Source: Escherichia phage JS98. From it: 64,000 nt of DNA. A program made the translations under genes and the position numbers. Under the pieces are notes generated by a model. The model was not told where the DNA came from and did not search any database. It saw nothing but the letters and a program-made list of their open reading frames with translations. Numbering within the stretch: position 1 is the stretch's first letter; every line of letters begins with the position of its first letter. The stretch lies in sequence record NC_010105.1. One strand, given 5' to 3'. Shown here piece by piece: positions 5,792 through 63,020 of this stretch.

Positions 5792-6002
5792 TGTAAGTTT
5801 CCTTCCAGAAGTCGGTGCCTTCAGCAGTGATTTCACGGAACACTGCATAGATAGGGTTTTTATCACCTTGATTTTCGTATACATAAACCGACGATAAATG
5901 AGAAAACGTATCAGAATGTTCCTTTTGAACCACGATTAAATCAGGGTTGAACAGAACATCTTCAAATTCTTCACGAGTCGAGTTCACAGTAACTTTAGCC
6001 AT
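5784..6002 (-). CDS. hypothetical protein
   Basis: 72-aa ORF directly downstream of promoter-like element at 6033-6062. Confidence 0.4.
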   Translation of the reverse strand: MAKVTVNSTREEFEDVLFNPDLIVVQKEHSDTFSHLSSVYVYENQGDKNPIYAVFREITAEGTDFWKETYNA

Positions 6003-6032
6003 TTTATTTTCCTCTCATTTGTTGATAGGGTA

Positions 6033-6062
6033 ATAGTATCACTACCCTACCGTATTGTATAC
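6033..6062 (-). promoter_or_regulatory. early-type promoter (variant -35 GTATAC)
   Basis: minus strand GTATAC-N18-TACTAT followed by conserved CCTATCAAC leader. Confidence 0.4.
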
Positions 6063-7249: not shown

Positions 7250-7755
7250 ATTGTTCTCAATTCAATAAAATCTACGAGTTCGGCATAGGATTTGCGGAAC
7301 ATTACTTGGCGGCCACCGATGACAACCTCATCTTCTGGTATTTCGTAAACAGCAAGATAGAATCCTTTAGAAGATAATTCTTCGCGCTCTTCACGAGTGA
7401 ACCAGCGCATCATATCATACTCACTGGCAAAAGCAAAATGGTAGAGGTTAACAAACCAGCCTGGAATATAATCGTCGCAGCCTTCATAATCGGGTCGTTT
7501 CCACTTAGTTCTAATGGTTTTATTAGAATTTTCTACCAGCAACTTATCTTGACTTGGTAGTGGGATATTTTTATTAATGCTATGATGATGTCTAAAAATA
7601 GGTCTGTCTAAACCTACTTCCAATAACCAGCCTTCACTCCACGAGTCTGTTGTACTTCTATACGGGGTCATTTGAGTACAGAGGTCTCGTCGTATTGTGA
7701 TAGCGTTTCCATCATCTAAGATACTGAACGATGACTCAACTCGATAAATTTTCAT
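7246..7755 (-). CDS. hypothetical protein
   Basis: 169 aa; ATG 7755 preceded by SD GAGGAGA and early promoter. Confidence 0.45.
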   Translation of the reverse strand: MKIYRVESSFSILDDGNAITIRRDLCTQMTPYRSTTDSWSEGWLLEVGLDRPIFRHHHSINKNIPLPSQDKLLVENSNKTIRTKWKRPDYEGCDDYIPGWFVNLYHFAFASEYDMMRWFTREEREELSSKGFYLAVYEIPEDEVVIGGRQVMFRKSYAELVDFIELRTI

Positions 7756-7781
7756 TTTGTTCTCCTCATGTTGATAGAGTT

Positions 7782-7810
7782 ATAGTATCATGTCATGAGG
7801 AGAAGTAAAC
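7782..7810 (-). promoter_or_regulatory. early promoter (GTTTAC-N17-TACTAT)
   Basis: plus strand atagta 7782-7787 and gtaaac 7805-7810; 17-bp spacer; intergenic. Confidence 0.6.
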
Positions 7811-10361: not shown

Positions 10362-11111
10362 TTAACCTCTAATCAGTGAAAAAATTGAAGCATTCAGCGG
10401 AAGACCTTTTTTCAACTTCAATTTGTCAATAAAAGAAAGGTGTTCTAAACGCTCCAGACCTTGAATAATTTTATCATACATATCGTAACGCGTTTCTGCT
10501 TCAGACAATTTAAACTTAACACGCCAATCAGGTCCACCAATTAAAGATTTAAGACCTTTTTCCATAGTACCGATTGAAGCGTTAGAACCATGGATACGGG
10601 CCTTAACTGCGATAACAGAAGGTGTCTTATCAGTAGCTCCCGATTTAATAAGGTCTTTAAGACGTTTTTCACGTTTTTTAAGACCTCTTTGGGTATCTTT
10701 TATATTTTTAACGATTTTACGGATTTTATAATAGTTATCAGGAGTAACTTTAAAACTATTAGGCATTTTAGAACTACCTGAAATACGAACTGCTAAACGA
10801 GTCTGAGCACGTTTCAGTTCACCAAGGGACAAATCGGCACGTAAGCTGTTATACTTAACTTTAACTGGGATTACATTACCCTCAATATAGCCGATATCGT
10901 TGTTAAAACGTTCAAATGAAATCTTATCATTAACTGAATTTTCATCAAAGTACTCGCCTGAATAAGCGCACACTTTTTGTTCAAGAAGTCTACGAATATA
11001 CTTACTAGACAGATTGAAGTCCTTACCACGTTTATAAGCAGAAGCTTTGGTGTGTTTGCGGCGGTTGTAAACCTTTAACTCAAATTCATCGTTAGTTTTA
11101 ATAGTAGGCAT
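10362..11111 (-). CDS. hypothetical protein in srd position (possibly Srd-like)
   Basis: 249 aa, matches size and map position of T4 srd; identity not verified. Confidence 0.4.
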   Translation of the reverse strand: MPTIKTNDEFELKVYNRRKHTKASAYKRGKDFNLSSKYIRRLLEQKVCAYSGEYFDENSVNDKISFERFNNDIGYIEGNVIPVKVKYNSLRADLSLGELKRAQTRLAVRISGSSKMPNSFKVTPDNYYKIRKIVKNIKDTQRGLKKREKRLKDLIKSGATDKTPSVIAVKARIHGSNASIGTMEKGLKSLIGGPDWRVKFKLSEAETRYDMYDKIIQGLERLEHLSFIDKLKLKKGLPLNASIFSLIRG

Positions 11112-11151
11112 GATATTTTTCTCATCTTACGGACGATTAGTTGATAGGTCT

Positions 11152-11180
11152 ATAGTATCATGTTGCTTAATAAAGTAAAC
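11152..11180 (-). promoter_or_regulatory. early promoter (GTTTAC-N17-TACTAT)
   Basis: atagta 11152-11157, gtaaac 11175-11180. Confidence 0.6.
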
Positions 11181-11249: not shown

Positions 11250-11864
11250 TCAGTAAGAAAGAACGGAAAGATTCCAAATGGTGTAATTATTCCATTTAGG
11301 ATTTCTCTCAATAGAGTCTACGCGCAGCGTAGTTCCCGCAGGGAACATCATCTCATCTTCATCATTAATTAATTGTAAGTTTGCTACACGTGTAGATTCA
11401 GGAAATGCGCCTGGGAACTCTTCAGGGGGCGCAGCACATAACATTTTAAAGATTTCTTCCTGATAATTGTACACAAATGGCGCATCATTAATACAAAAGA
11501 TATTAAATGTGCCGTAGAAGTTATAAGATGCGAAATTCCTTGCTACGTTGAAGTCTTTAGAGAAGCTCATCACACGATCGAATTCAATTACCGCACCCAC
11601 ACACATTGTGGACTCTAGATACTTCAGGGTCTTTTTAGATATACCACGATAGAGCTTATCAGGCACTACAGAAGTCAGGTTCTTACGAATAATTTTGTTC
11701 AGAGTTTCCTGGATAGAATCAGGTTTATTTTCCATACACTGCCAGAGCGTGCTCTGTTCTAAATCAGAATACACCTCATCAATTTCTATCTGGGTATTCT
11801 CACGGAAATCGTCGCATTTGGCATTGTTGATAAATTCTGCTAATTTATGGCTTGGATATAACAT
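11250..11864 (-). CDS. modA: ADP-ribosyltransferase, ModA-like
   Basis: 204 aa; R (LYRG), S-x-S (MSFSK) and E-x-E (EDE) motifs; paralog of next gene; T4 position. Confidence 0.65.
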   Translation of the reverse strand: MLYPSHKLAEFINNAKCDDFRENTQIEIDEVYSDLEQSTLWQCMENKPDSIQETLNKIIRKNLTSVVPDKLYRGISKKTLKYLESTMCVGAVIEFDRVMSFSKDFNVARNFASYNFYGTFNIFCINDAPFVYNYQEEIFKMLCAAPPEEFPGAFPESTRVANLQLINDEDEMMFPAGTTLRVDSIERNPKWNNYTIWNLSVLSY

Positions 11865-11889
11865 ATTATTCTCCTCAGTTGATAGAAAG

Positions 11890-11919
11890 ATAGTACCACA
11901 AGCTTCCTTGCCTGTAAAC
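11890..11919 (-). promoter_or_regulatory. early promoter
   Basis: GTTTAC-N18-TACTAT on minus strand, just upstream of modA-like gene. Confidence 0.5.
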
Positions 11920-14427: not shown

Positions 14428-14447
14428 AAGGAACCCGAAGGTTCCTT
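14428..14447 (-). terminator. intrinsic terminator downstream of soc
   Basis: aaggaacc-cgaa-ggttcctt; minus strand followed by TTTTTTCGTTTT. Confidence 0.6.
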
Positions 14448-17609: not shown

Positions 17610-17903
17610 TTACTCACCTGTAACCTCTTTAACAATGTTTTTGTTATCGAAATTAGCGTCACAATACAAAACATAGTTGTACTGCATAACACCGGTTGAA
17701 GCTAATTGGTCGGACACTTCTTTAACCATGTCAGGACGGTCACGTTTAGTGATGTTCATGATATCGGCATAAATCTGATGTTCAACTGACTCTTGGTCTG
17801 CAGTCATAGACCATTCACAAAGGTCTTTATCCAATCCGGCAGTTACCGGAGCCGTGCCACATGATGCTACTGTAAGGATTGCTGCGATTAATAACTTTTT
17901 CAT
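17610..17903 (-). CDS. putative lipoprotein
   Basis: 97 aa; MKKLLIAAILTVASC signal peptide with lipobox; SD GAGGAG; early promoter upstream. Confidence 0.5.
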   Translation of the reverse strand: MKKLLIAAILTVASCGTAPVTAGLDKDLCEWSMTADQESVEHQIYADIMNITKRDRPDMVKEVSDQLASTGVMQYNYVLYCDANFDNKNIVKEVTGE

Positions 17904-17931
17904 TTTTAACTCCTCATTAGTGGATAGGTCT

Positions 17932-17961
17932 ATAGTATCACTACCATAGACCGATGTAAAC
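17932..17961 (-). promoter_or_regulatory. early promoter
   Basis: GTTTAC-N18-TACTAT. Confidence 0.55.
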
Positions 17962-18547: not shown

Positions 18548-18865
18548 TTAGATTTCCTCACAGAAGGCCCATTCAGCGTGATAAACCGTAGCGCCTTTAG
18601 TATCATTTAAACAAACCACATCTACCGGAGCAATTACACGATAAAGACGAGGTTCTCCTCCCACTGAACGAGCAGCTCGTCCAGCATAAATCTTAGCCAA
18701 ACCAATATCTTCAGTAAAGAACACACGATTCAGGTTTTTCTTACGACCAGTTTCAGACAGAACTCCTGTTTCCTCAGGAGGACAAAGCATATTACCAATA
18801 TTAGCAACACTACAACTTCCATGATAATACACTTTATATTCTGCTTTACAGTCGATGGTTTTCAT
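18548..18865 (-). CDS. hypothetical protein
   Basis: start re-placed to ATG 18865 (MKTIDC); track start 18877 is TTG. Confidence 0.45.
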   Translation of the reverse strand: MKTIDCKAEYKVYYHGSCSVANIGNMLCPPEETGVLSETGRKKNLNRVFFTEDIGLAKIYAGRAARSVGGEPRLYRVIAPVDVVCLNDTKGATVYHAEWAFCEEI

Positions 18866-18889
18866 TTTGTTCTCCAAGTTGATAGGTCT

Positions 18890-18918
18890 ATAGTATCATG
18901 CCTACAGGAGAAGTAAAC
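18890..18918 (-). promoter_or_regulatory. early promoter (GTTTAC-N17-TACTAT)
   Basis: atagta 18890-18895, gtaaac 18913-18918. Confidence 0.6.
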
Positions 18919-18931
18919 CCTTAAAACAAAA

Positions 18932-18949
18932 AAGGAGCCGAAGCTCCTT
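18932..18949 (-). terminator. intrinsic terminator after gene 41
   Basis: aaggagc-cgaa-gctcctt overlapping gp41 stop; minus strand followed by TTTTTTGTTTT. Confidence 0.6.
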
Positions 18950-26949: not shown

Positions 26950-27182
26950 TGTTTAACGATAATGATTTGTGCGTTTGATTTACGTTCAGCGACGATAGCC
27001 CAGATTAAAGCCACTACCCAACCAATCATTGTCCATCCTAACAGGAGATTAAGGAAGAAGATTCCGACATTGCTACGAGTGCCTCGCAGAAGAGCTAGAA
27101 TCCATGGTAAAAAGTAACCAATGAACATAATAACCAGAGAACCAAATCCTAAAACACCAGCACTAACGATTAAAGCTTCCAT
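26946..27182 (-). CDS. imm: Imm-like membrane protein (superinfection immunity position)
   Basis: 78 aa, two TM helices; between 42 and 43 as T4 imm. Confidence 0.5.
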   Translation of the reverse strand: MEALIVSAGVLGFGSLVIMFIGYFLPWILALLRGTRSNVGIFFLNLLLGWTMIGWVVALIWAIVAERKSNAQIIIVKQ

Positions 27183-27213
27183 TATAATTTCCTCATGTAG
27201 TTGATAGGAAGGA

Positions 27214-27243
27214 TAATACCACGTTCCATGTGGTATGTAAACA
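27214..27243 (-). promoter_or_regulatory. early-type promoter
   Basis: GTTTAC-N18-TATTAT. Confidence 0.45.
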
Positions 27244-40356: not shown

Positions 40357-40529
40357 AATTTAATTTCCTTAGCTATCGAACAAAACACACCGCGGTCACA
40401 AATCATTTTAATATTAAGGTCAATTATGGTATACCACACGTCCAGGCTAGATATTTCAGTTACTAGAACAGCTTTGCCGTTGATTGAATAATACTGGTTG
40501 ACTTTAATTTCTTTATCTTGGATAGTCAT
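40353..40529 (-). CDS. hypothetical small protein
   Basis: 58-aa ORF not in track; SD GAGGAGA; downstream of early promoter. Confidence 0.4.
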   Translation of the reverse strand: MTIQDKEIKVNQYYSINGKAVLVTEISSLDVWYTIIDLNIKMICDRGVFCSIAKEIKL

Positions 40530-40558
40530 AATGTTCTCCTCATGTGTTGATAGGATAG

Positions 40559-40587
40559 ACTATAACACGTGAGGAGAGGAAGTAAAC
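40559..40587 (-). promoter_or_regulatory. early promoter (GTTTAC-N17-TATAGT)
   Basis: gtaaac 40582-40587. Confidence 0.55.
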
Positions 40588-44142: not shown

Positions 44143-45146
44143 TTCAACAGCTCCAGGGCTTGTTCCAGTTTATCCAGACGATTGGTAGACTCTTCCCAAA
44201 GTTTCTTGGCAGCAGTATATTGTCCGGTCAGTTTTTTGTTAATAGCCAAGGCATCTTTATACGCTTTTTCTAAGGCAACGATTTCCGGTAACTTGGATTT
44301 AGTAATTGGTGTATGGGCCATGATAGGGCTGTTCAAGTCGTTAATCAAGTCTTCTAATGTAGCAGGCTCTTTATCAGTGTTCACAATTTCCTCACATTTT
44401 TCTTGGTAAATTTCAGCATCGGTTTTTGGAACAGGGCATTTGATTTCGCGAACTGTTACTAAAACTTCATATCCTTTCCAGCCTAAGTGGTGGTTGATTT
44501 CTTGAATCTCATATTTCTCTACTGTATCCATCAAAGCTAAAGCTTGTTCTACAATATTCAGGGTATTGTAGGAAATATCTTGGTATTTCGAAACTTCAAC
44601 TTCTTTAGGTTTCCAACTAGGCGACCAAATAATAGAAATAAGTACCTTCCCTTTATAGTTGTTTGTTTTAATCATGCCATCAGCCATAGGGTGGATAGTA
44701 CGACAATCACCCTTTACAAAGGTTTTGGTTGCTGCTTTTAGAATTAATGCGGAGTTAGCCTTAAATTCACCGGCCCAACGTAAAGGAAATAAGCCCTTAG
44801 GGTCGGTACCTTTCATTTTGATATAGCTTTTTAAAACATCACCAAACCATTGGTAGCTAACAACGTGGCTGGAACCTGGGTGTTTCTCTCTGCCAAACTC
44901 TGAAAGGATATCCTTATTAACCAGCCGCGAAAGCAGTCGAGAACCTTTAAATGTATCTATGATATCAGGGATAAACAAACGCCCTGCAATCTTTTCGATT
45001 TCATCTTTGAAACAACCGGATAAGGCTTTATCAATTTGGTCTACCCATTTATTGATATTGGAAACTATCACCTCATATGGGGTTAATGGAGGGGTATTGT
45101 CAGTGATATACTTAGTAAAGGCATTGATGTATTCAGTACGGGTCAT
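44139..45146 (-). CDS. hypothetical protein with C-terminal coiled coil
   Basis: start re-placed to ATG 45146 (MTRTEYINAF) with SD GAGGAGA. Confidence 0.5.
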   Translation of the reverse strand: MTRTEYINAFTKYITDNTPPLTPYEVIVSNINKWVDQIDKALSGCFKDEIEKIAGRLFIPDIIDTFKGSRLLSRLVNKDILSEFGREKHPGSSHVVSYQWFGDVLKSYIKMKGTDPKGLFPLRWAGEFKANSALILKAATKTFVKGDCRTIHPMADGMIKTNNYKGKVLISIIWSPSWKPKEVEVSKYQDISYNTLNIVEQALALMDTVEKYEIQEINHHLGWKGYEVLVTVREIKCPVPKTDAEIYQEKCEEIVNTDKEPATLEDLINDLNSPIMAHTPITKSKLPEIVALEKAYKDALAINKKLTGQYTAAKKLWEESTNRLDKLEQALELLK

Positions 45147-45174
45147 GATATTCTCCTCAGTAGTTGATAAAAGG

Positions 45175-45204
45175 ATTATACTCCATCCGTCCTTGGATGT
45201 AAAC
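45175..45204 (-). promoter_or_regulatory. early promoter
   Basis: GTTTAC-N18-TATAAT. Confidence 0.5.
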
Positions 45205-47285: not shown

Positions 47286-47810
47286 TTATGCGAGAACCGT
47301 CTTTAAACGCTCTTCAAATTTCTGAAGCAGAGCTTGGCGTTCAGCTCGTTGTGATTTGTACTGCTCGATACGACCTGAAGTGAGGGCGTACTGTTCGTTT
47401 ACTGATTCCCGCATGAATTCAGGAATCTCTTTACAAGCTTTGATTTCGTCAAACTTATCAATAACCGCTTGTTGTTCAGCAATCAAGTTATCAAAATAAG
47501 CGATATCTGATTTAATGTTTGCCAGGTCAGATTCAGTAGGCATTAAACGTTTATTACGCTCAGCTTGATAAGCTTGGTTGGTTTCACGACTCCAGTGAAG
47601 AGTACGTTTTTTGTTAGTGTTTTTATAGAGCTCTACAATACCAACTGAATCGATGATAACAATCCAGTTCCAACGGCTTTTGTAAATCTCTCCTCCAGAT
47701 ATGGTAATCTCATTACCACAAGCAACGTCGTTAAAGAACTTGCTTTGTTTTTCAGATTTGAAATTACCATTGTTAAAATTAATCAGTGAAAAAATATCTT
47801 TAGCGTTCAT
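47286..47810 (-). CDS. hypothetical protein with C-terminal coiled coil
   Basis: 174-aa ORF. Confidence 0.5.
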   Translation of the reverse strand: MNAKDIFSLINFNNGNFKSEKQSKFFNDVACGNEITISGGEIYKSRWNWIVIIDSVGIVELYKNTNKKRTLHWSRETNQAYQAERNKRLMPTESDLANIKSDIAYFDNLIAEQQAVIDKFDEIKACKEIPEFMRESVNEQYALTSGRIEQYKSQRAERQALLQKFEERLKTVLA

Positions 47811-47836
47811 GATAACCTCCAGTAGTTGATAGGTCT

Positions 47837-47865
47837 ATAGTATCATGTCTAATGGAGATGTAAAC
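47837..47865 (-). promoter_or_regulatory. early promoter (GTTTAC-N17-TACTAT)
   Basis: atagta 47837-47842, gtaaac 47860-47865. Confidence 0.6.
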
Positions 47866-48219: not shown

Positions 48220-49215
48220 TTATTTCAGAAGGGTAACTTCAGCGATTTCGCTCCAGTCATTTTTATCGGTGGCAATGAAGTCCGCCAGATAAAGAGCTGT
48301 ACGTAATGATACGTTACGAAGACGAGATACATTGGCCTTCATCCATGCTAGAGCTTGATAAGTCTCAGCATCAGTCAGACCTCGGTTTTGCATCATATCG
48401 GTGGACAGGATAACGTCTTCAACACGAACCATAATCTCTTCATTCGAGTGAACTCCGAGGTCTAAGTAAACTGAACGAGATACTAAAGCTTGGAGGTGTG
48501 GAGCAAGTTTAGTTCCACGCTCTAATTCACGGTCAATATCAACGTTGGTGATGAACACGATGGTGCCTTCGTATTCGAATTCTTTATCGATATTTTTATC
48601 ATCGAGATAAGAACTTGAAGTGCTCCAGCATACCTTACGTTTCTCACCGGTATCCAATGCCGCTTTCAGAAGGTTCAGGATATCCATGTCAGAGAATACA
48701 TCAACATCATCAATAAGAAGAACACTATTAGGGCCGCGGTTATTCCAAAGTTGCTCGTAAAGACCGATTCCACTAATCTTTCCGTTGATTGATTTATATT
48801 CGATAGTTTCATTTTCGTGGGCATTTTGTAATGCTTTATCCAAAGAGTATGTTTTACCAATACCTGCGGCACCAGAGATGATAAGGGAACGAATTTTACC
48901 ATCGATGATTCCGTTAGTCATCATGTTCATTACTTTAAAACGTTTGTTGATGCGATGTTTCATTTCTTCAGCGGATTCAGTAACCGTTGCAGGTGCTTCA
49001 GCGCCTTCCATTTCAACGTCACATTTGAACACCCATACACCACGTTCAACACCATCAATCTGCACGAATACCTTGCCGTCACCGAGGTGAGCTTCAGATT
49101 CATGAATTTTATTAGGGAACCAGGTTTTACCTGAACTCATGAACGTACCAGAGATTTCATTACCGCGATAGATACCTTTGTTGATTTTGATAGTTAACAT
49201 TTTATTCTCCTTCAC
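48220..49215 (-). CDS. AAA+/P-loop ATPase
   Basis: 331 aa; Walker A SGAAGIGKT, Walker B VLLIDDVD. Confidence 0.55.
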   Translation of the reverse strand: MKENKMLTIKINKGIYRGNEISGTFMSSGKTWFPNKIHESEAHLGDGKVFVQIDGVERGVWVFKCDVEMEGAEAPATVTESAEEMKHRINKRFKVMNMMTNGIIDGKIRSLIISGAAGIGKTYSLDKALQNAHENETIEYKSINGKISGIGLYEQLWNNRGPNSVLLIDDVDVFSDMDILNLLKAALDTGEKRKVCWSTSSSYLDDKNIDKEFEYEGTIVFITNVDIDRELERGTKLAPHLQALVSRSVYLDLGVHSNEEIMVRVEDVILSTDMMQNRGLTDAETYQALAWMKANVSRLRNVSLRTALYLADFIATDKNDWSEIAEVTLLK

Positions 49216-49235
49216 TCAGTAGATTTGATAGGTCT

Positions 49236-49264
49236 ATAATAACATGTTTAAAGCAGATGTACAC
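49236..49264 (-). promoter_or_regulatory. promoter-like repeat copy 1 (GTGTAC-N17-TATTAT, overlapping TGCTTTA)
   Basis: 38-bp direct repeat shared with 49538-49575. Confidence 0.4.
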
Positions 49265-49266
49265 AC

Positions 49267-49497
49267 TTATTTTGCAATAATTTCACAGAAGCCATCTTTA
49301 TAGCGGGCCCATGTTTCACCATTTACTGTATAAAGAGCAGCTTTACGGCCATTAGGCATAACAACTTGTTTACCTTTGTTTTTAGTTACAGCTTCAATAA
49401 TTTCGTATTCTTCAGCACGATCAGCTTTAAAGGTATCTTCCAGAGCGATCAAGTTAGTAGTGTAAGAACCGTATTTGTAATTTTTGATAGCGTACAT
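49267..49497 (-). CDS. hypothetical protein
   Basis: 76-aa ORF flanked by the two promoter-like repeats. Confidence 0.4.
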   Translation of the reverse strand: MYAIKNYKYGSYTTNLIALEDTFKADRAEEYEIIEAVTKNKGKQVVMPNGRKAALYTVNGETWARYKDGFCEIIAK

Positions 49498-49547
49498 TTT
49501 TATATCTCCGTTTGGTTTAAGTTTTCAGCTCTTTAGCTGATAGGTCT

Positions 49548-49576
49548 ATAATAACATGTTTAAAGCAGATGTACAC
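49548..49576 (-). promoter_or_regulatory. promoter-like repeat copy 2
   Basis: identical 38-bp core to copy 1. Confidence 0.4.
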
Positions 49577-49598
49577 TACTTTTTTGCACTAAACCCAA

Positions 49599-49618
49599 AA
49601 AAGGCCCGAAGGCCTTTT
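49599..49618. terminator. intrinsic terminator (potentially bidirectional)
   Basis: aaaaggcc-cgaa-ggcctttt with A/T runs on both sides. Confidence 0.55.
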
Positions 49619-52393: not shown

Positions 52394-52630
52394 TCACCAG
52401 TATTTGTTGATAGTAGAAATTAATTCTTGGGCTTGAGTGGTCTTCAGCTTACACCCACAACCCTTTAATGTGTCTTTAAGGAGCCATGGTTCCTTGAGCT
52501 CGTCCTTTTCTAAGCGAATTCTGTACCCTCGGTAGTCGGCAAAGATACTTCGGTCGTCGAATATCTTAATCTCAAGGAGGCGATTATTGATTTCATATTC
52601 TAATGAAACCGTAGTACTTGTAAGTTTCAT
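52394..52630 (-). CDS. hypothetical protein
   Basis: 78 aa; SD GAGGAGA; early promoter upstream. Confidence 0.4.
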   Translation of the reverse strand: MKLTSTTVSLEYEINNRLLEIKIFDDRSIFADYRGYRIRLEKDELKEPWLLKDTLKGCGCKLKTTQAQELISTINKYW

Positions 52631-52658
52631 ACTGTTCTCCTCATTAGTTGATAGGTCT

Positions 52659-52687
52659 ATAGTATCACGTTCCTAGAGGATGTAAAT
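52659..52687 (-). promoter_or_regulatory. early promoter (ATTTAC-N17-TACTAT)
   Basis: atagta 52659-52664. Confidence 0.5.
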
Positions 52688-52702
52688 ACTAAAACGAAAA
52701 AA

Positions 52703-52722
52703 GGTCCCACCGAAGTGAGACC
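52703..52722 (-). terminator. intrinsic terminator
   Basis: ggtcccac-cgaa-gtgagacc (one mismatch); minus strand followed by TTTTTTCGTTTT. Confidence 0.5.
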
Positions 52723-56300: not shown

Positions 56301-56759
56301 TTAAAGATAGATTACTTTCGTGCTGGTTTTACCTTCTAAACGTTTAGAGTTAACAAATGCCATACGACATTTTAATGAATATCCTTTATCAGGATGTTTA
56401 CGATCTACGGTCATACCCAACCATAAGGTTTTATCGGTAATCTCGAGACGCAGTGGACGATACACTTTACCTGGGACAATTTCAGATTCTACGTCAGGAA
56501 GAGGCTCCTGGATTAAAAATTCATGGATTTCTTTAACATGATTGTGGAGCTTCTTGAACAAAGAGAAAACATATTTTTCGTCAATTTCACGTTGGATAGC
56601 ACGGTCCAACAAGTGATTAGAGTACTTAATAAAGAAAGCTGGGACACCGCTCTTAATGGCGGCTTTTTTGATGGACGCGTTAAGTTCACGAAATTCGGTT
56701 TCGAACTGACGACGTAATTTGTTGCGGCGGATGAATACTTCTGAATTAATTTCTGACAT
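56301..56759 (-). CDS. regB: RegB endoribonuclease
   Basis: start re-placed to ATG 56759 (MSEINSEVFIRRNKLRR) with SD AGGAG; matches T4 RegB as recalled. Confidence 0.88.
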   Translation of the reverse strand: MSEINSEVFIRRNKLRRQFETEFRELNASIKKAAIKSGVPAFFIKYSNHLLDRAIQREIDEKYVFSLFKKLHNHVKEIHEFLIQEPLPDVESEIVPGKVYRPLRLEITDKTLWLGMTVDRKHPDKGYSLKCRMAFVNSKRLEGKTSTKVIYL

Positions 56760-56787
56760 TTTGTAATCTCCTGTAGTTGATAGGTCT

Positions 56788-56816
56788 ATAGTACCATGTC
56801 TACAGGAGATGTAAAC
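56788..56816 (-). promoter_or_regulatory. early promoter (GTTTAC-N17-TACTAT)
   Basis: immediately upstream of regB. Confidence 0.6.
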
Positions 56817-58309: not shown

Positions 58310-58609
58310 TTAGAAAGAACCAGAACCTTTAATTGTGTTCTGGCGACCTTTATTTTCCAATTCGGAGTGGTCGATTTCGTATGCTTGGGCTACACCAAAG
58401 GCTTTTTTAACTTTAGCTAAAGAGCCTTTAGATGTAACAATATTAAAAGTATTACCTTTAGTAAAATCAACCAAATCCACTTGTACGCCCTGTTTACCGA
58501 GGCTTGCTACAATAGCATCAACATATTCTTGGTCTAAGGTGCCTTGGACACCTATTTGGAATGCTTTAGGAGCTTTGGCTTCTGTAATAAATTCTTGATA
58601 AGTTTTCAT
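58310..58609 (-). CDS. capsid internal protein (IPII-like) with N-terminal capsid-targeting sequence
   Basis: 99 aa; MKTYQEFITEA leader. Confidence 0.7.
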   Translation of the reverse strand: MKTYQEFITEAKAPKAFQIGVQGTLDQEYVDAIVASLGKQGVQVDLVDFTKGNTFNIVTSKGSLAKVKKAFGVAQAYEIDHSELENKGRQNTIKGSGSF

Positions 58610-58651
58610 ATTATTCCTTAAGTTGATAGAAGTATTCTATCACGGATTTAA

Positions 58652-59068
58652 TTAAGCGTAAATAGCCTTGCCGTAGTGTTTGTACCAGGTAGGACGTTGT
58701 GCAATTTTTTCGTCCAAACGAGCTTGTGAAATAGCGATAGAAGCTTCGTGAGGAACATAATCACCACGGAATTCCTGAGGAATATCACTAATGTCCTGGA
58801 CCGTAGTATCCTTGATATTAAAGCCACGTTTTAAACATTCGGCTATAAGCTCGATTTGACGCTTACGTAAAAATTCAAGCTTATCATAAAAGAATGTAAC
58901 GTGGCCTGTACCAAGGATAAAAGTAGGGCTGATTTTAAAATCACGAACACGTTTACCGTTAGCAACATGCTTACGAACTGCACCGAAAACACGTGGTAAT
59001 TCACGATATTCAGCCATTAAGTGTTGGTCAGCCAATTCAGATACTAAGGTAAGGTTGATACGAGTCAT
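58652..59068 (-). CDS. denV: endonuclease V (pyrimidine-dimer DNA glycosylase) DenV
   Basis: 138 aa; [34 protein letters not shown] near-identical to T4 DenV as recalled. Confidence 0.95.
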
Positions 59069-59095
59069 TTTTAATCTCCTGTAGTTGATAGGTCT

Positions 59096-59124
59096 ATAGT
59101 ATCATGCCTACAGGAGAAGTAAAC
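59096..59124 (-). promoter_or_regulatory. early promoter (GTTTAC-N17-TACTAT)
   Basis: upstream of denV. Confidence 0.6.
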
Positions 59125-59523
59125 TTATTTGTAAGTTTTCATCCAATTCTTGAACAGAGCTGCAACGTCTTTCTCTTTAACGTTCAATTTAACGTCCAGC
59201 ATTTTGCCACCGGCGGCACGTGTCTGACGAATCTTGGCCGTACCGGTTTCGCCATTCCACTCAACATAATACTGCCCGGTGTTCATAGCGATACCATCGC
59301 CATAGTCTTCGTTCTTAGAAGTAGTGAATGCCAACTTCATGGTCTTAGAGACACGGGCCTGCATGCCTGTCTGCAGAGCGTTACGAACGCGAATAACCTG
59401 AGGAGTGGCCTGGGTTAGGTTCTCGTTCAGTTCTTCGGTGAACTCTTCTGATTCAAACATTGCCAAAAGTTCAGCGGGCGCCGGGATTACAGCTTCGGCG
59501 ATAAATTCATTATAAGTTTTCAT
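59125..59523 (-). CDS. capsid internal protein with N-terminal capsid-targeting sequence
   Basis: 132 aa; MKTYNEFIAEA leader. Confidence 0.65.
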   Translation of the reverse strand: MKTYNEFIAEAVIPAPAELLAMFESEEFTEELNENLTQATPQVIRVRNALQTGMQARVSKTMKLAFTTSKNEDYGDGIAMNTGQYYVEWNGETGTAKIRQTRAAGGKMLDVKLNVKEKDVAALFKNWMKTYK

Positions 59524-59563
59524 ATAGGTCCTTTAAAGGTAAATGTGTTTAAGTATAGGCTTA

Positions 59564-60160
59564 TTAATTACCACGGGCTGCATTAGCAACGGCGTAAGCG
59601 TACTGAATATTAGCGTCTTTAAACGTACCTTTAGAGGTATCTAGTTCTGCCTTAAAGCCGGCCTTAGTCATAACATCGGCAAATTCTTTACGGAAAGCCA
59701 TTGTATCAAGACCTTTCCATGCTGATTTATGCTTGGCAAATTCAAGACCAGCGAAGTTGACTGCTTTAGCCAATTTATTATCAATAGTCCATTTACCTGC
59801 TTTAGGTACAAATACCGGACCTTTCTGTTTAGAGAACAGTTTTAAATTCCAGCGACGAAGGTCGCCGTCGGCTTTAACAAAAGCTGCGTCCAAGTTACTA
59901 GCAACAACATCTTGAATATGGCCAAATTTAAGCCCATCAGCTTCAATATTTAGGTCGTTACGCCAGCGAAGTCCTTCCCAGGCGAAAGCTTTAAAGTCGG
60001 AAGCTTTTGTAGCTAAATACCGTTCAATAGGAGCTGTTTTAGCGTCAAAGCCGTTTCCTGGGTTGTCAACGCCGTTTCCTCGGTAGGTCCACTCATCTTT
60101 ATTAATGCCTTTGACCTTTCCTGCAGTAGCTTCGGCGATAAATTCTTTATACGTTTTCAT
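59564..60160 (-). CDS. capsid internal protein (IPIII-like)
   Basis: 198 aa; MKTYKEFIAEA leader. Confidence 0.7.
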   Translation of the reverse strand: MKTYKEFIAEATAGKVKGINKDEWTYRGNGVDNPGNGFDAKTAPIERYLATKASDFKAFAWEGLRWRNDLNIEADGLKFGHIQDVVASNLDAAFVKADGDLRRWNLKLFSKQKGPVFVPKAGKWTIDNKLAKAVNFAGLEFAKHKSAWKGLDTMAFRKEFADVMTKAGFKAELDTSKGTFKDANIQYAYAVANAARGN

Positions 60161-60212
60161 ACGGGTCCTTCAAATGTAAATATTTAATTAGTCTGTTCAA
60201 GTAACTGTAGAT

Positions 60213-60241
60213 ATACTATCACAATTCTAGGAGATGTAAAC
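60213..60241 (-). promoter_or_regulatory. early promoter (GTTTAC-N17-TAGTAT)
   Basis: upstream of IPIII-like gene. Confidence 0.5.
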
Positions 60242-62729: not shown

Positions 62730-63020
62730 TTACTTTTTGTTGAAAAAGTACATTTTACCTTTAGGGGATAAGGATACACGAAGTGCGTTACCGATACCAA
62801 CTGAACATTTAACCAGGTCAGCAGATTTCAATTCACCAAATGCTTGACGAAGGTCACCGTCACGAGTGTTAACCATCAGGCATTTAGCACCAGCTGCACG
62901 AACTTCGTTTAACATGTTGATTGCTTGGTTAGAAAGTTTCATTTTATTCTCCATTTCACTCTGTTGTTTTGATAGGTCTATAGTATCACACCTATAGACC
63001 TTGTATACTGTTTTATGCAA
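62730..63020 (-). CDS. hypothetical protein
   Basis: 96-aa ORF; start uncertain. Confidence 0.35.
   Translation of the reverse strand: MHKTVYKVYRCDTIDLSKQQSEMENKMKLSNQAINMLNEVRAAGAKCLMVNTRDGDLRQAFGELKSADLVKCSVGIGNALRVSLSPKGKMYFFNKK
62981..63009 (-). promoter_or_regulatory. early-type promoter (variant -35 GTATAC)
   Basis: GTATAC-N17-TACTAT. Confidence 0.4.

Follow-up and report, generated by a model that had tools for sequence, protein, structure and literature searches.

This analysis concerned a repeated element in a 64,000-nucleotide stretch of the genome of Escherichia phage JS98 (NC_010105.1; the whole stretch is called the window here), and in particular the copy at 18865..18918 on the minus strand. 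The elements are best explained, with a probability of roughly 0.6, as sigma-70-type early promoters of a JS98-group T4-like phage that are built as repeated promoter-early stem-loop (PeSL) cassettes and carry hairpins spanning the promoter. The parts of this explanation that were observed directly are the family itself, its pattern of conservation, the hairpins with their covariation, and the recombination junctions. Read from 5' to 3', a cassette would comprise an A/T-rich tract, GTTTAC (-35), a spacer of 17-18 bp ending in TGn, TAcTAT (-10), AGACCT and ATCAAC, and then a leader of 20-48 nt, which holds a GGAG ribosome-binding site (RBS) and an A-rich stretch after it, and the start codon. 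The twelve nucleotides AGACCT/ATCAAC are referred to below as the box. Host RNA polymerase would fire such cassettes immediately after infection, leading to expression of host-takeover and other immediate-early genes.

Cassette family and genomic setting

A preliminary, sequence-only reading had proposed a family of at least 17 near-identical copies. Regular-expression and weight-matrix scans of the window found an early-promoter cassette at 17/17 of the positions listed there, all on the minus strand, with the first base of the -35 element at 63008, 60241, 59124, 56816, 52687, 49576, 49264, 47865, 45204, 40587, 27242, 18918, 17961, 11919, 11180, 7810 and 6062 (copies are named below by these numbers). 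The family was therefore real at every position, but near-identity to the consensus was limited to about 12 copies. Copies 45204, 40587, 27242 and 11919 retained only (C)TATCAAC and differed in the discriminator, and copy 60241, upstream of ipIII, lacked the leader box completely. Chance was excluded as the origin of the family, because the 18-mer TACTATAGACCTATCAAC (≤3 mismatches) had 12 matches in the window compared to 0.07 expected from shuffled sequences, with none on the plus strand, and because the weight-matrix scan returned 15 minus-strand matches and 0 on the plus strand. The 12-mer box alone (≤2 mismatches) matched 15 times, with 5.1 expected, while a generic sigma-70 scan of the window was uninformative (39 sites, 38.5 expected). 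An 18th, weaker member was located at 58663 (minus strand; ATTTAC-N18-TAGAAT-ACTTCTATCAAC). In the 17 listed copies the distance from the first base of the -35 to the start codon was 53-79 nt, and each stood before a minus-strand open reading frame (ORF). Exact matches to the 18-mer in IMG/VR came mostly from JS98-like genomes of ~155-172 kb, together with a few shorter metagenome contigs.

The window belongs to a T4-like coliphage of the JS98 group (Dhakavirus). It shared 98.9% identity over 4 kb with Escherichia phage MN04 (species Dhakavirus JS98), and 93-97% identity with JS10, VR5, QL01 and relatives, and it corresponds to the early region from rIIA to the tRNA genes on the T4 map. Homologues of T4 immediate-early genes came directly after the cassettes and ran in the same direction. 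PHROG matches for the downstream products included internal protein III, endonuclease V (denV), RegB, Imm and Spackle, as well as RNA-polymerase ADP-ribosyltransferase, Srd, Cef and several conserved proteins of unknown function. The complete MN04 genome contained 28 such cassettes, every one on the early-gene strand, and canonical terminators with TTCG loops and T runs directly preceded three of the window copies (52687, 49576 and 18918). The earlier assignment of these elements to early promoters was borne out by GTTTAC, the 17-18 bp spacer, TG at -15/-14 and TAnnnT, by the immediate-early genes that follow, and by several loci matching those of T4 (see below).

Conservation around the presumed start site

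Copies were aligned on the -10 element, with position 0 as the presumed start, following the convention of Nolan et al. (2006, PMC1524935). In 17/17 copies the -35 had at most one mismatch to GTTTAC, the spacer was 17-18 bp, and T-12, A-11 and T-7 were invariant, while T-15 and G-14 (the extended -10, TGn) were present in 94% of window copies. The block that follows, A-6 G A C C T-1 / A0 T C A A C, held 0.6-1.5 bits per position, except for G-5 with only 0.25. The 25 nt upstream were 71% A+T, against 61% for the window, and included an A-rich run beside the -35. At the 3' end an RBS and start codon were found in 17/17 copies, with GGAG in 13/17, then an A-rich stretch and ATG. From this geometry we infer that transcription would start at the A of ATCAAC, seven nucleotides after the -10.

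Divergence was assessed from 37 orthologous cassette pairs between the window and other JS98-group genomes, the orthologues being non-independent. Per-site divergence was 1.1% for the 12-nt box, 2.3% for the -10, 2.9% for the rest of the leader, 3.6% for the first 60 nt of the gene, 4.1% for the -35, 6.9% for the spacer and 16.2% for the 30 nt upstream. Of all cassette segments, the AGACCT/ATCAAC block behind the -10 evolves most slowly, which upholds the strong conservation downstream of the -10 that had been noticed earlier. The account then given of that conservation was incomplete, since it missed an inverted repeat connecting the spacer to the downstream region, and this repeat explains part of it.

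Three causes may act on the box. The discriminator, the start site and the first-transcribed part of the T-even early consensus would be strongly constrained in this lineage; the box would also supply the 3' arm of an inverted repeat, with the 5' arm situated in the promoter spacer, which is not transcribed; and recombination between cassettes would spread and homogenise it. Pairing accounts for part of the conservation, by way of TATCA in class A copies and AGACC in class B copies (classes described below), but cannot explain the whole, because in class A the AGACC sits in a loop. The remaining constraint most plausibly comes from the part that the discriminator, the start site and the first bases of the transcript play in promoter function, in keeping with what is established for sigma-70 promoters. 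An RNA processing site or a factor target within the box had also been suggested, and no result obtained here points to either. Rfam gave no match at gathering score anywhere in the window, and the exact box sequence was absent from relevant papers in the literature searched, where the only matches were in two papers on other subjects. A DnaA-box likeness of CTATCCAC/CTATCAAC and the rules for NAD-capping promoters were dropped as poor matches.

The box is not peculiar to JS98-group phage, as judged by the T4 consensus, which is the same but weaker. T4 early promoters (Hinton 2010, PMC2988021; Nolan et al. 2006, PMC1524935) have the same GTTTAC, TGn and TAnnnT with an A-rich tract near -42, and the C-rich positions -3 to -1 are common to both sets, as is the start-region consensus CTATCAAC, which is less pronounced in T4. 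After the -10, the T4 consensus AgaaCTATcaacTAc reads A-g-a-a-C-T-A-T-c-a-a-c-T-A-c at 0.1-0.9 bits per position, compared to 0.6-1.5 bits (0.25 at G-5) in the window, where the cassettes are far more alike across loci. Such promoters have been noted to possess "additional regions of consensus" (Hinton 2010, PMC2988021), and C is preferred at -3 to -1 in the early promoters of RB69, RB49 and 44RR (Nolan et al. 2006, PMC1524935). Window copies match the loci of motif-predicted T4 early promoters at sp, srd, regB, denV, nrdC.8 and motB.2. Upstream of denV, T4 reads GTTTAC-ATCTCCTGTAGGTATGA-TACTAT-AGACCTATCAAC-TACAGGAGA, a likeness that reflects either very strong selection or horizontal movement. 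This T4 cassette (NC_000866, ~65,413, minus strand) matches the class A copies of the window over ~45 nt; most phage records that matched the window were only 60-80% identical, unlike the core of the T4 denV cassette.

Beyond the JS98 group, several T4-sized IMG/VR contigs among the matches listed carried CTATCAAC at the same place, and some of those listed had long arms running from the spacer to the RBS, such as AGCTCCTCAGCAG/GCTGCTGAGGAGCT. A loose pattern, GTTTAC-N17/18-TANNNT-N5/7-TATCAAC, returned mostly chance occurrences among the IMG/VR matches listed. At the non-JS98 loci L054, L047, L036/L128, L055 and L111 the same layout was seen with unrelated arms of up to 14 bp, and L036/L128, and less perfectly L055, had a nested class B stem besides the spacer-to-RBS pairing.

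Inverted repeats across the promoter

The stretch from the -35 to the ATG was folded as RNA, and each copy was scored as z against its own shuffles. Values of z ≤ -2.3 were obtained for 9/17 copies, and the cassettes as a set folded at -12.8 kcal/mol, compared to -10.2 kcal/mol for same-strand random windows (p = 0.024), despite a lower G+C. In class A, as in copy 59124, the spacer TCTCCTGTAG pairs with the RBS-containing leader CTACAGGAGA, and the start region is connected with the extended -10 by an inner TGATA/TATCA stem. Folding energies of copies 59124, 56816, 40587 and 7810 were -18 to -21 kcal/mol (z -4.4 to -6.5). In class B, as in copy 63008, the spacer AGGTCTATAG pairs with CTATAGACCT, which comprises the -10 and discriminator (copies 63008, 17961 and 6062; z -3.1 to -4.5), and in class C (copies 45204, 27242 and 11919) the hairpin lies entirely within the spacer. 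A listing of short-range inverted repeats in the window was too noisy for an enrichment test.

In 9/17 copies the spacer is complementary either to the -10/discriminator or to the sequence of the leader and RBS. The arms differ in sequence between loci and phages, yet stay complementary, and these compensatory changes speak for the pairing. In class A they include TCTCCTGTAG/CTACAGGAGA, TCTCCAGTAG/CTACTGGAG, TCTCCATTAG/CTAATGGAGA, TCTCCTCATG/CATGAGGAGA and TCTCCTCACGTGT/ACACATGAGGAGA, and class B arms covary likewise (AGGTCT/AGACCT, AAGGCT/AGCCTT, TAGGGTA/TACCCTA, ACAGGGTA/TACCCTGT and TTTGGTACAGGT/ACCTGTACCAAA). A permutation test covered the window, MN04 and relatives in IMG/VR, 91 distinct cassettes in all, among which orthologous copies are not independent. 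Native combinations of 5' and 3' halves folded at -12.2 kcal/mol, compared to -9.0 kcal/mol for chimeras, and the native mean was reached in 0/10,000 permutations (z = -12.5). In an alignment of 11 class A sequences, 97.7% of cells were paired and compensatory double changes occurred in 5/11 outer-stem pairs, counts that are biased upward because the sequences had been selected for pairing. The covariation score was 0.284 against 0.097 for shuffled alignments (0/500), and sliding the partner by 1-3 columns destroyed the signal. The permutation test and the pair counts support the view that the predicted pairing between spacer and downstream region has been selected.

Hairpins of this kind are specific to early promoters, because T4 early-promoter regions (-36 to +30) folded at -13.8 kcal/mol, better than mapped middle promoters (-7.9 kcal/mol, p = 0.002) and random windows (-9.4 kcal/mol, p = 0.006). 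Motif-predicted early promoters of T4 have repeats that span the -10, including TGATGAGGTA/TACCTCATCA, GACAAGACT/AGTCTTGTC and a 14-bp repeat upstream of ipII, and T4 regB has an anti-RBS arm upstream.

Read-through and local transcripts

The hairpin could not form in RNA made from the cassette's own promoter, because the start site lies between or after the arms. It would form only in RNA reading through from upstream, or in single-stranded DNA. In the largest subclass, a read-through RNA would have its RBS buried, and so be poorly translated and shielded from RegB, while a locally started RNA would be accessible both to translation and to RegB. Masking (unpaired probability ≤0.07) was predicted for 7/17 window copies and ~12/28 MN04 copies, and over the 28 MN04 cassettes the mean probability of an unpaired RBS was ~0.27 in read-through compared to 0.65 in locally started RNA.

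A comparable arrangement is found in the T4 genes e, soc, 49 and I-TevI, the RBS of which is masked in long transcripts (Uzan and Miller 2010, PMC3014915). In both cases the promoter lies inside the hairpin. In the T4 genes a local RNA without the 5' arm is translatable, while the read-through RNA folds and hides the RBS, and the same behaviour is predicted for the present cassettes. The T4 genes use a late promoter (TATAAATA), which delays expression, whereas the internal promoter here is an early sigma-70 promoter, and the predicted effect would be to confine translation to the immediate-early burst, for ~40% of copies only. The JS98-group cassettes are, as predicted from their sequences, an analogue of this type of control and not a member of it.

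RegB cleaves early ribosome-binding sites at GGAG, secondary structure blocks this cleavage, and middle and late transcripts are resistant. Its targets, GGAG followed by A-rich sequence in early leaders, resemble the ribosome-binding sites of the cassettes, and regB itself lies behind one of these in the window, but the likeness touches the RBS and not the conserved box. The earlier idea of a role for RegB fits the GGAG and A-rich sites and the presence of regB in the window, and does not address the box. The regB gene (56304-56816, minus strand) is behind a class A cassette with a GGAG RBS. T4 RegB cleaves its own RBS, and in the present phage the RBS of regB would be buried in any read-through transcript.

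A wider proposal, which is tentative, is that hairpins enclose T-even early promoters as a class, with the untranscribed promoter spacer as 5' arm, so that each early message would have two states: a locally started RNA, being open, would be translated and cleaved by RegB, and a read-through RNA would be folded, resist RegB and go untranslated. This would provide a general cis-encoded device that confines immediate-early proteins to the first minutes of infection. If true, two-state messages could help to explain why RegB spares middle transcripts, as well as the abrupt shut-off of early genes; the shut-off of T4 early promoters has been described as "not completely understood".

Recombination within cassettes

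PeSLs consist of an A/T-rich tract, an early promoter, a stem-loop, an RBS and a start codon, the stem-loop lying mostly between the -35 and -10 or over the -10 (Arbiol et al. 2010, PMC2839356; Comeau et al. 2014, PMC4122927). They have been described in RB49/phi1, T4/PST and KVP40/nt-1, are overrepresented in plastic regions, and bring about modular shuffling and the formation of mini-circles. The stem-loop of a phi1 PeSL reduced lacZ expression as strongly as rrnB T1, and the JS98 group received a passing mention only, for "PeSL-like sequences" near g43 (PMC2839356, PMC4122927). The repeated promoter cassettes reported by the sequence-only reading are real, but their arrangement had already been published as PeSL, and this was overlooked.

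Like the published elements, the window family consists of repeated intergenic modules. These have the same parts and share the orientation of early genes and small ORFs, junctions between close relatives fall inside the cassettes, and tandem near-identical copies surround small ORFs. A stem-loop was present in the 9/17 copies with z ≤ -2.3, and three further copies directly follow a terminator stem-loop. Association with indels was also seen, as 3/7 gaps in the window-MN04 alignment break inside a cassette, a small sample. There are differences: the JS98-group promoter is of T4 type (GTTTAC/TAcTAT), while the described PeSLs have TTGACA/TATAAT; the stems are not GGGG/CCCC; the commonest stem connects spacer and RBS, and falls outside the five described PeSL subclasses; and uniformity in the 12 nt that follow the -10 is much greater than has been described elsewhere. 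At the sequence level the family belongs to a known kind, T-even early promoters as PeSL cassettes.

An insertion of ~900 bp relative to MN04 (58652-59551, minus strand) ends in the spacer of the 58663 promoter. It contains an internal-protein-like ORF of 132 aa (MKTYNEFIAEA...), then a class A cassette with denV, and MN04 has no denV at this position. The insertion resembles a gene module, flanked by cassettes, that was gained or lost. Copies 49576 and 49264 (49198-49576, minus strand) are 312 bp apart and have the same 39-nt promoter half, and between them lies a 76-aa ORF. MN04 lacks this ORF and instead has a reverse-oriented gene of 756 bp; the junction falls in the spacer of copy 49264. 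This layout is the one proposed to yield PeSL mini-circles. The third cassette breakpoint relative to MN04 was an indel junction in the leader of copy 6062. In MN04, near-identical tandem cassettes at 115439 and 115783 flank a small ORF just upstream of motA, and share their leaders (AGACCTATCAAATAAATGAACTGAAAC).

Competing explanations

Several results weigh against the interpretation of these elements as early promoters in PeSL cassettes with promoter-spanning hairpins. No significant hairpin was found in 8/17 copies. Sense and antisense strands folded equally (-12.20 and -12.18 kcal/mol) and G-U pairs were not enriched on the mRNA strand, so the hairpin is not marked as a feature of RNA rather than DNA. 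Masking of the RBS across the whole family was rejected after controls in which foreign spacers gave an unpaired probability of 0.33 and shuffled spacers 0.30, not significantly different from the native ~0.27; since these values are similar, masking is a property of a subclass (~12/28) and not of the family. The AGACC of the box forms a loop in class A, where pairing leaves its conservation unexplained, and the recombinant copy 49264 has lost the spacer-leader complementarity that its MN04 orthologue keeps. Orthologous copies were non-independent in both the permutation and the divergence tests, the class A counts were biased as stated above, and the start site, promoter activity and every function suggested for the hairpins are predictions from sequence.

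It is conceivable, if doubtful, that the hairpins attenuate or terminate read-through, or form a stable 3' end that protects the upstream message, masking being incidental. The phi1 stem-loop that cut lacZ expression as strongly as rrnB T1 would fit such a role, as would hairpins that start within a few nucleotides of the upstream stop codon, the indifference of classes B and C to the RBS, and the view that T4 3' ends mark stable RNA ends and not termination sites. Hairpins were also weaker behind a canonical terminator (-7.9 compared to -14.1 kcal/mol, p = 0.03, from small numbers), which hints at a role in read-through, whether by attenuation and stabilisation or by masking. The promoter-spanning stems, however, are followed by sequences such as TTAAAAATG or TATCAA and have no U run, while the canonical terminators of the window do have one, and on this ground they were ruled out as intrinsic terminators. 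In the commonest class, moreover, the 3' arm always ends on the RBS, in several phages and with different arms. An unlikely alternative is that the elements are plain strong promoters copied around the genome, recognised by sigma-70 only and kept alike by duplication, gene conversion and horizontal exchange. Recombination between such cassettes is documented (PMC2839356, PMC4122927), and the identical 39-nt promoter half of two copies 312 bp apart, the MN04 breakpoints inside cassettes, and the sameness of the T4 denV cassette core despite the 60-80% identity of most matching records all agree with it, but homogenisation alone should preserve the spacer, which diverges 6x faster than the box (the upstream flank 15x faster). 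Copying would also not predict compensatory changes in the arms, nor a start-region consensus in T4 promoters with unrelated spacers.

The absence of strand asymmetry, together with stems that are almost all Watson-Crick, would suit inverted repeats that act as DNA hairpins or cruciforms promoting recombination, or that arise or persist through templated quasi-palindrome repair. The junctions inside cassettes point the same way, and the authors of the PeSL studies speculated that the stem-loop is a target of recombination proteins. This is nevertheless rather improbable, as the centre of symmetry is not fixed (about -22, -14 or -4 relative to the start), loops reach ~50 nt (MN04 148916), which is unfavourable for cruciform extrusion, homology of 40-60 bp alone can explain the junctions, and specificity for early promoters is not predicted. 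Least likely is that the box AGACCTATCAAC is recognised by a phage or host factor, for example one causing early shut-off, or acts as an RNA 5'-end or processing signal. It is the most conserved segment and straddles the start site, a good position for a repressor, and the T4 shut-off mechanism is incompletely understood, but no known factor or motif matches the box, the Rfam and literature searches described above gave nothing relevant, and the box is without internal dyad symmetry. The corresponding positions are allowed to vary much more in T4, and the preference for C at -3 to -1 is general in T4-like early promoters.

Two aspects are modestly new. The first is how strongly the 12 nt around the start site are constrained in JS98-group phages; the second is the evidence that early promoters across the T-even phages lie inside covarying hairpins, with the spacer as 5' arm and the commonest form pairing with the RBS. 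For annotation, the cassettes show where the early transcription units of JS98-group phages lie, and several of these phages serve in therapy or have been proposed for it. The cassettes also mark sites of gene exchange between relatives, here the denV module and a small ORF. The 12-nt block and the spacer-leader pairing offer mutable targets for studying the strength of T-even early promoters, and the same targets bear on how read-through and local messages are treated and on the shut-off of early genes.

Individual copies and minor observations

The copy at 18865..18918 (minus strand) has its -35 G at 18918, its -10 TACTAT at 18890-18895 and its ATG at 18865. On the minus strand it reads GGGTTTAC-TTCTCCTGTAGGCATGA-TACTAT-AGACCTATCAAC-TTGGAGAACAAA-ATG, with AGACCTATCAAC as box and TTGGAGAACAAA as leader. 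Its hairpin is weak, and the gene downstream, which specifies a 105-aa protein of unknown function, lies upstream of dmd. An intrinsic terminator (AAGGAGC-TTCG-GCTCCTT and a T run; 18932..18949, minus strand) is immediately upstream of the cassette. This and the window terminators at 14428-14447, ~49595-49615 and ~52695-52720 (minus strand) all have a C(TTCG)G tetraloop and a T run, and the same loop occurs at five terminators of MN04. The leader of the 18918 copy also holds TTGGAG at 18872-18877 (minus strand), perhaps by coincidence, as the window has 8 occurrences on the minus and 18 on the plus strand; TTGGAG, cut before the final G, is the preferred terminase cleavage motif reported for the JS98-like phage IME08 (PMC3105952).

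All remaining copies are likewise on the minus strand. Class A copies precede denV (59066..59124; -18.1 kcal/mol, z -4.6) and regB (56757..56816; -18.3 kcal/mol, z -4.4). The class A copy at 47808..47865 has arms TCTCCATTAG/CTACTGGAGG with one mismatch (z -1.85) and is followed by a 174-aa nrdC.8-like gene; the spacer of its MN04 orthologue, TCTCCAGTAG, matches. Different arms, TCTCCTCACGTGT/ACACATGAGGAGA, were found at 40527..40587 (-21.1 kcal/mol, z -6.1), before a 58-aa ORF, and arms TTCTCCTCATG/CATGAGGAGAA at 7753..7810 (-19.4 kcal/mol, z -6.5), before a 169-aa motB.2-like gene. Class B copies are at 62940..63008, before a 70-aa ORF (-15.4 kcal/mol, z -3.1), at 17901..17961, upstream of sp (spackle; -18.0 kcal/mol, z -3.1), and at 6000..6062, where the compensated arms are GGTAGGGTAGTG/TACTATTACCC and a cef-like gene follows (-16.2 kcal/mol, z -4.5).

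Diverged copies with a spacer hairpin occur at 45144..45204 (-10 TATAAT, box CCTTTTATCAAC, 335-aa gene downstream), at 27180..27242 (box CCTTCCTATCAAC, hairpin ACCAC/GTGGT, upstream of imm) and at 11862..11919 (box CTTTCTATCAAC, upstream of a modA/modB-like ADP-ribosyltransferase gene). The copy at 52628..52687 has a -35 of ATTTAC, a weak hairpin and a terminator before it, and is followed by a 78-aa ORF, while the copy at 11109..11180, upstream of srd, has the full box and a hairpin that is not significant. The two copies with identical promoter halves (GTGTACATCTGCTTTAAACATGTTATTATAGACCTATCA) are at 49495..49576, preceded by a terminator and followed by the 76-aa ORF that is not present in MN04, and at 49198..49264, which precedes a 326-aa gene and has lost its hairpin. 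An outlier upstream of ipIII (60158..60241) combines a promoter with an anti-RBS-like spacer and is without the CTATCAAC box. The 18th, weaker member (58607..58663) is followed by an internal-protein-like ORF and lies at the right-hand junction of the denV insertion.

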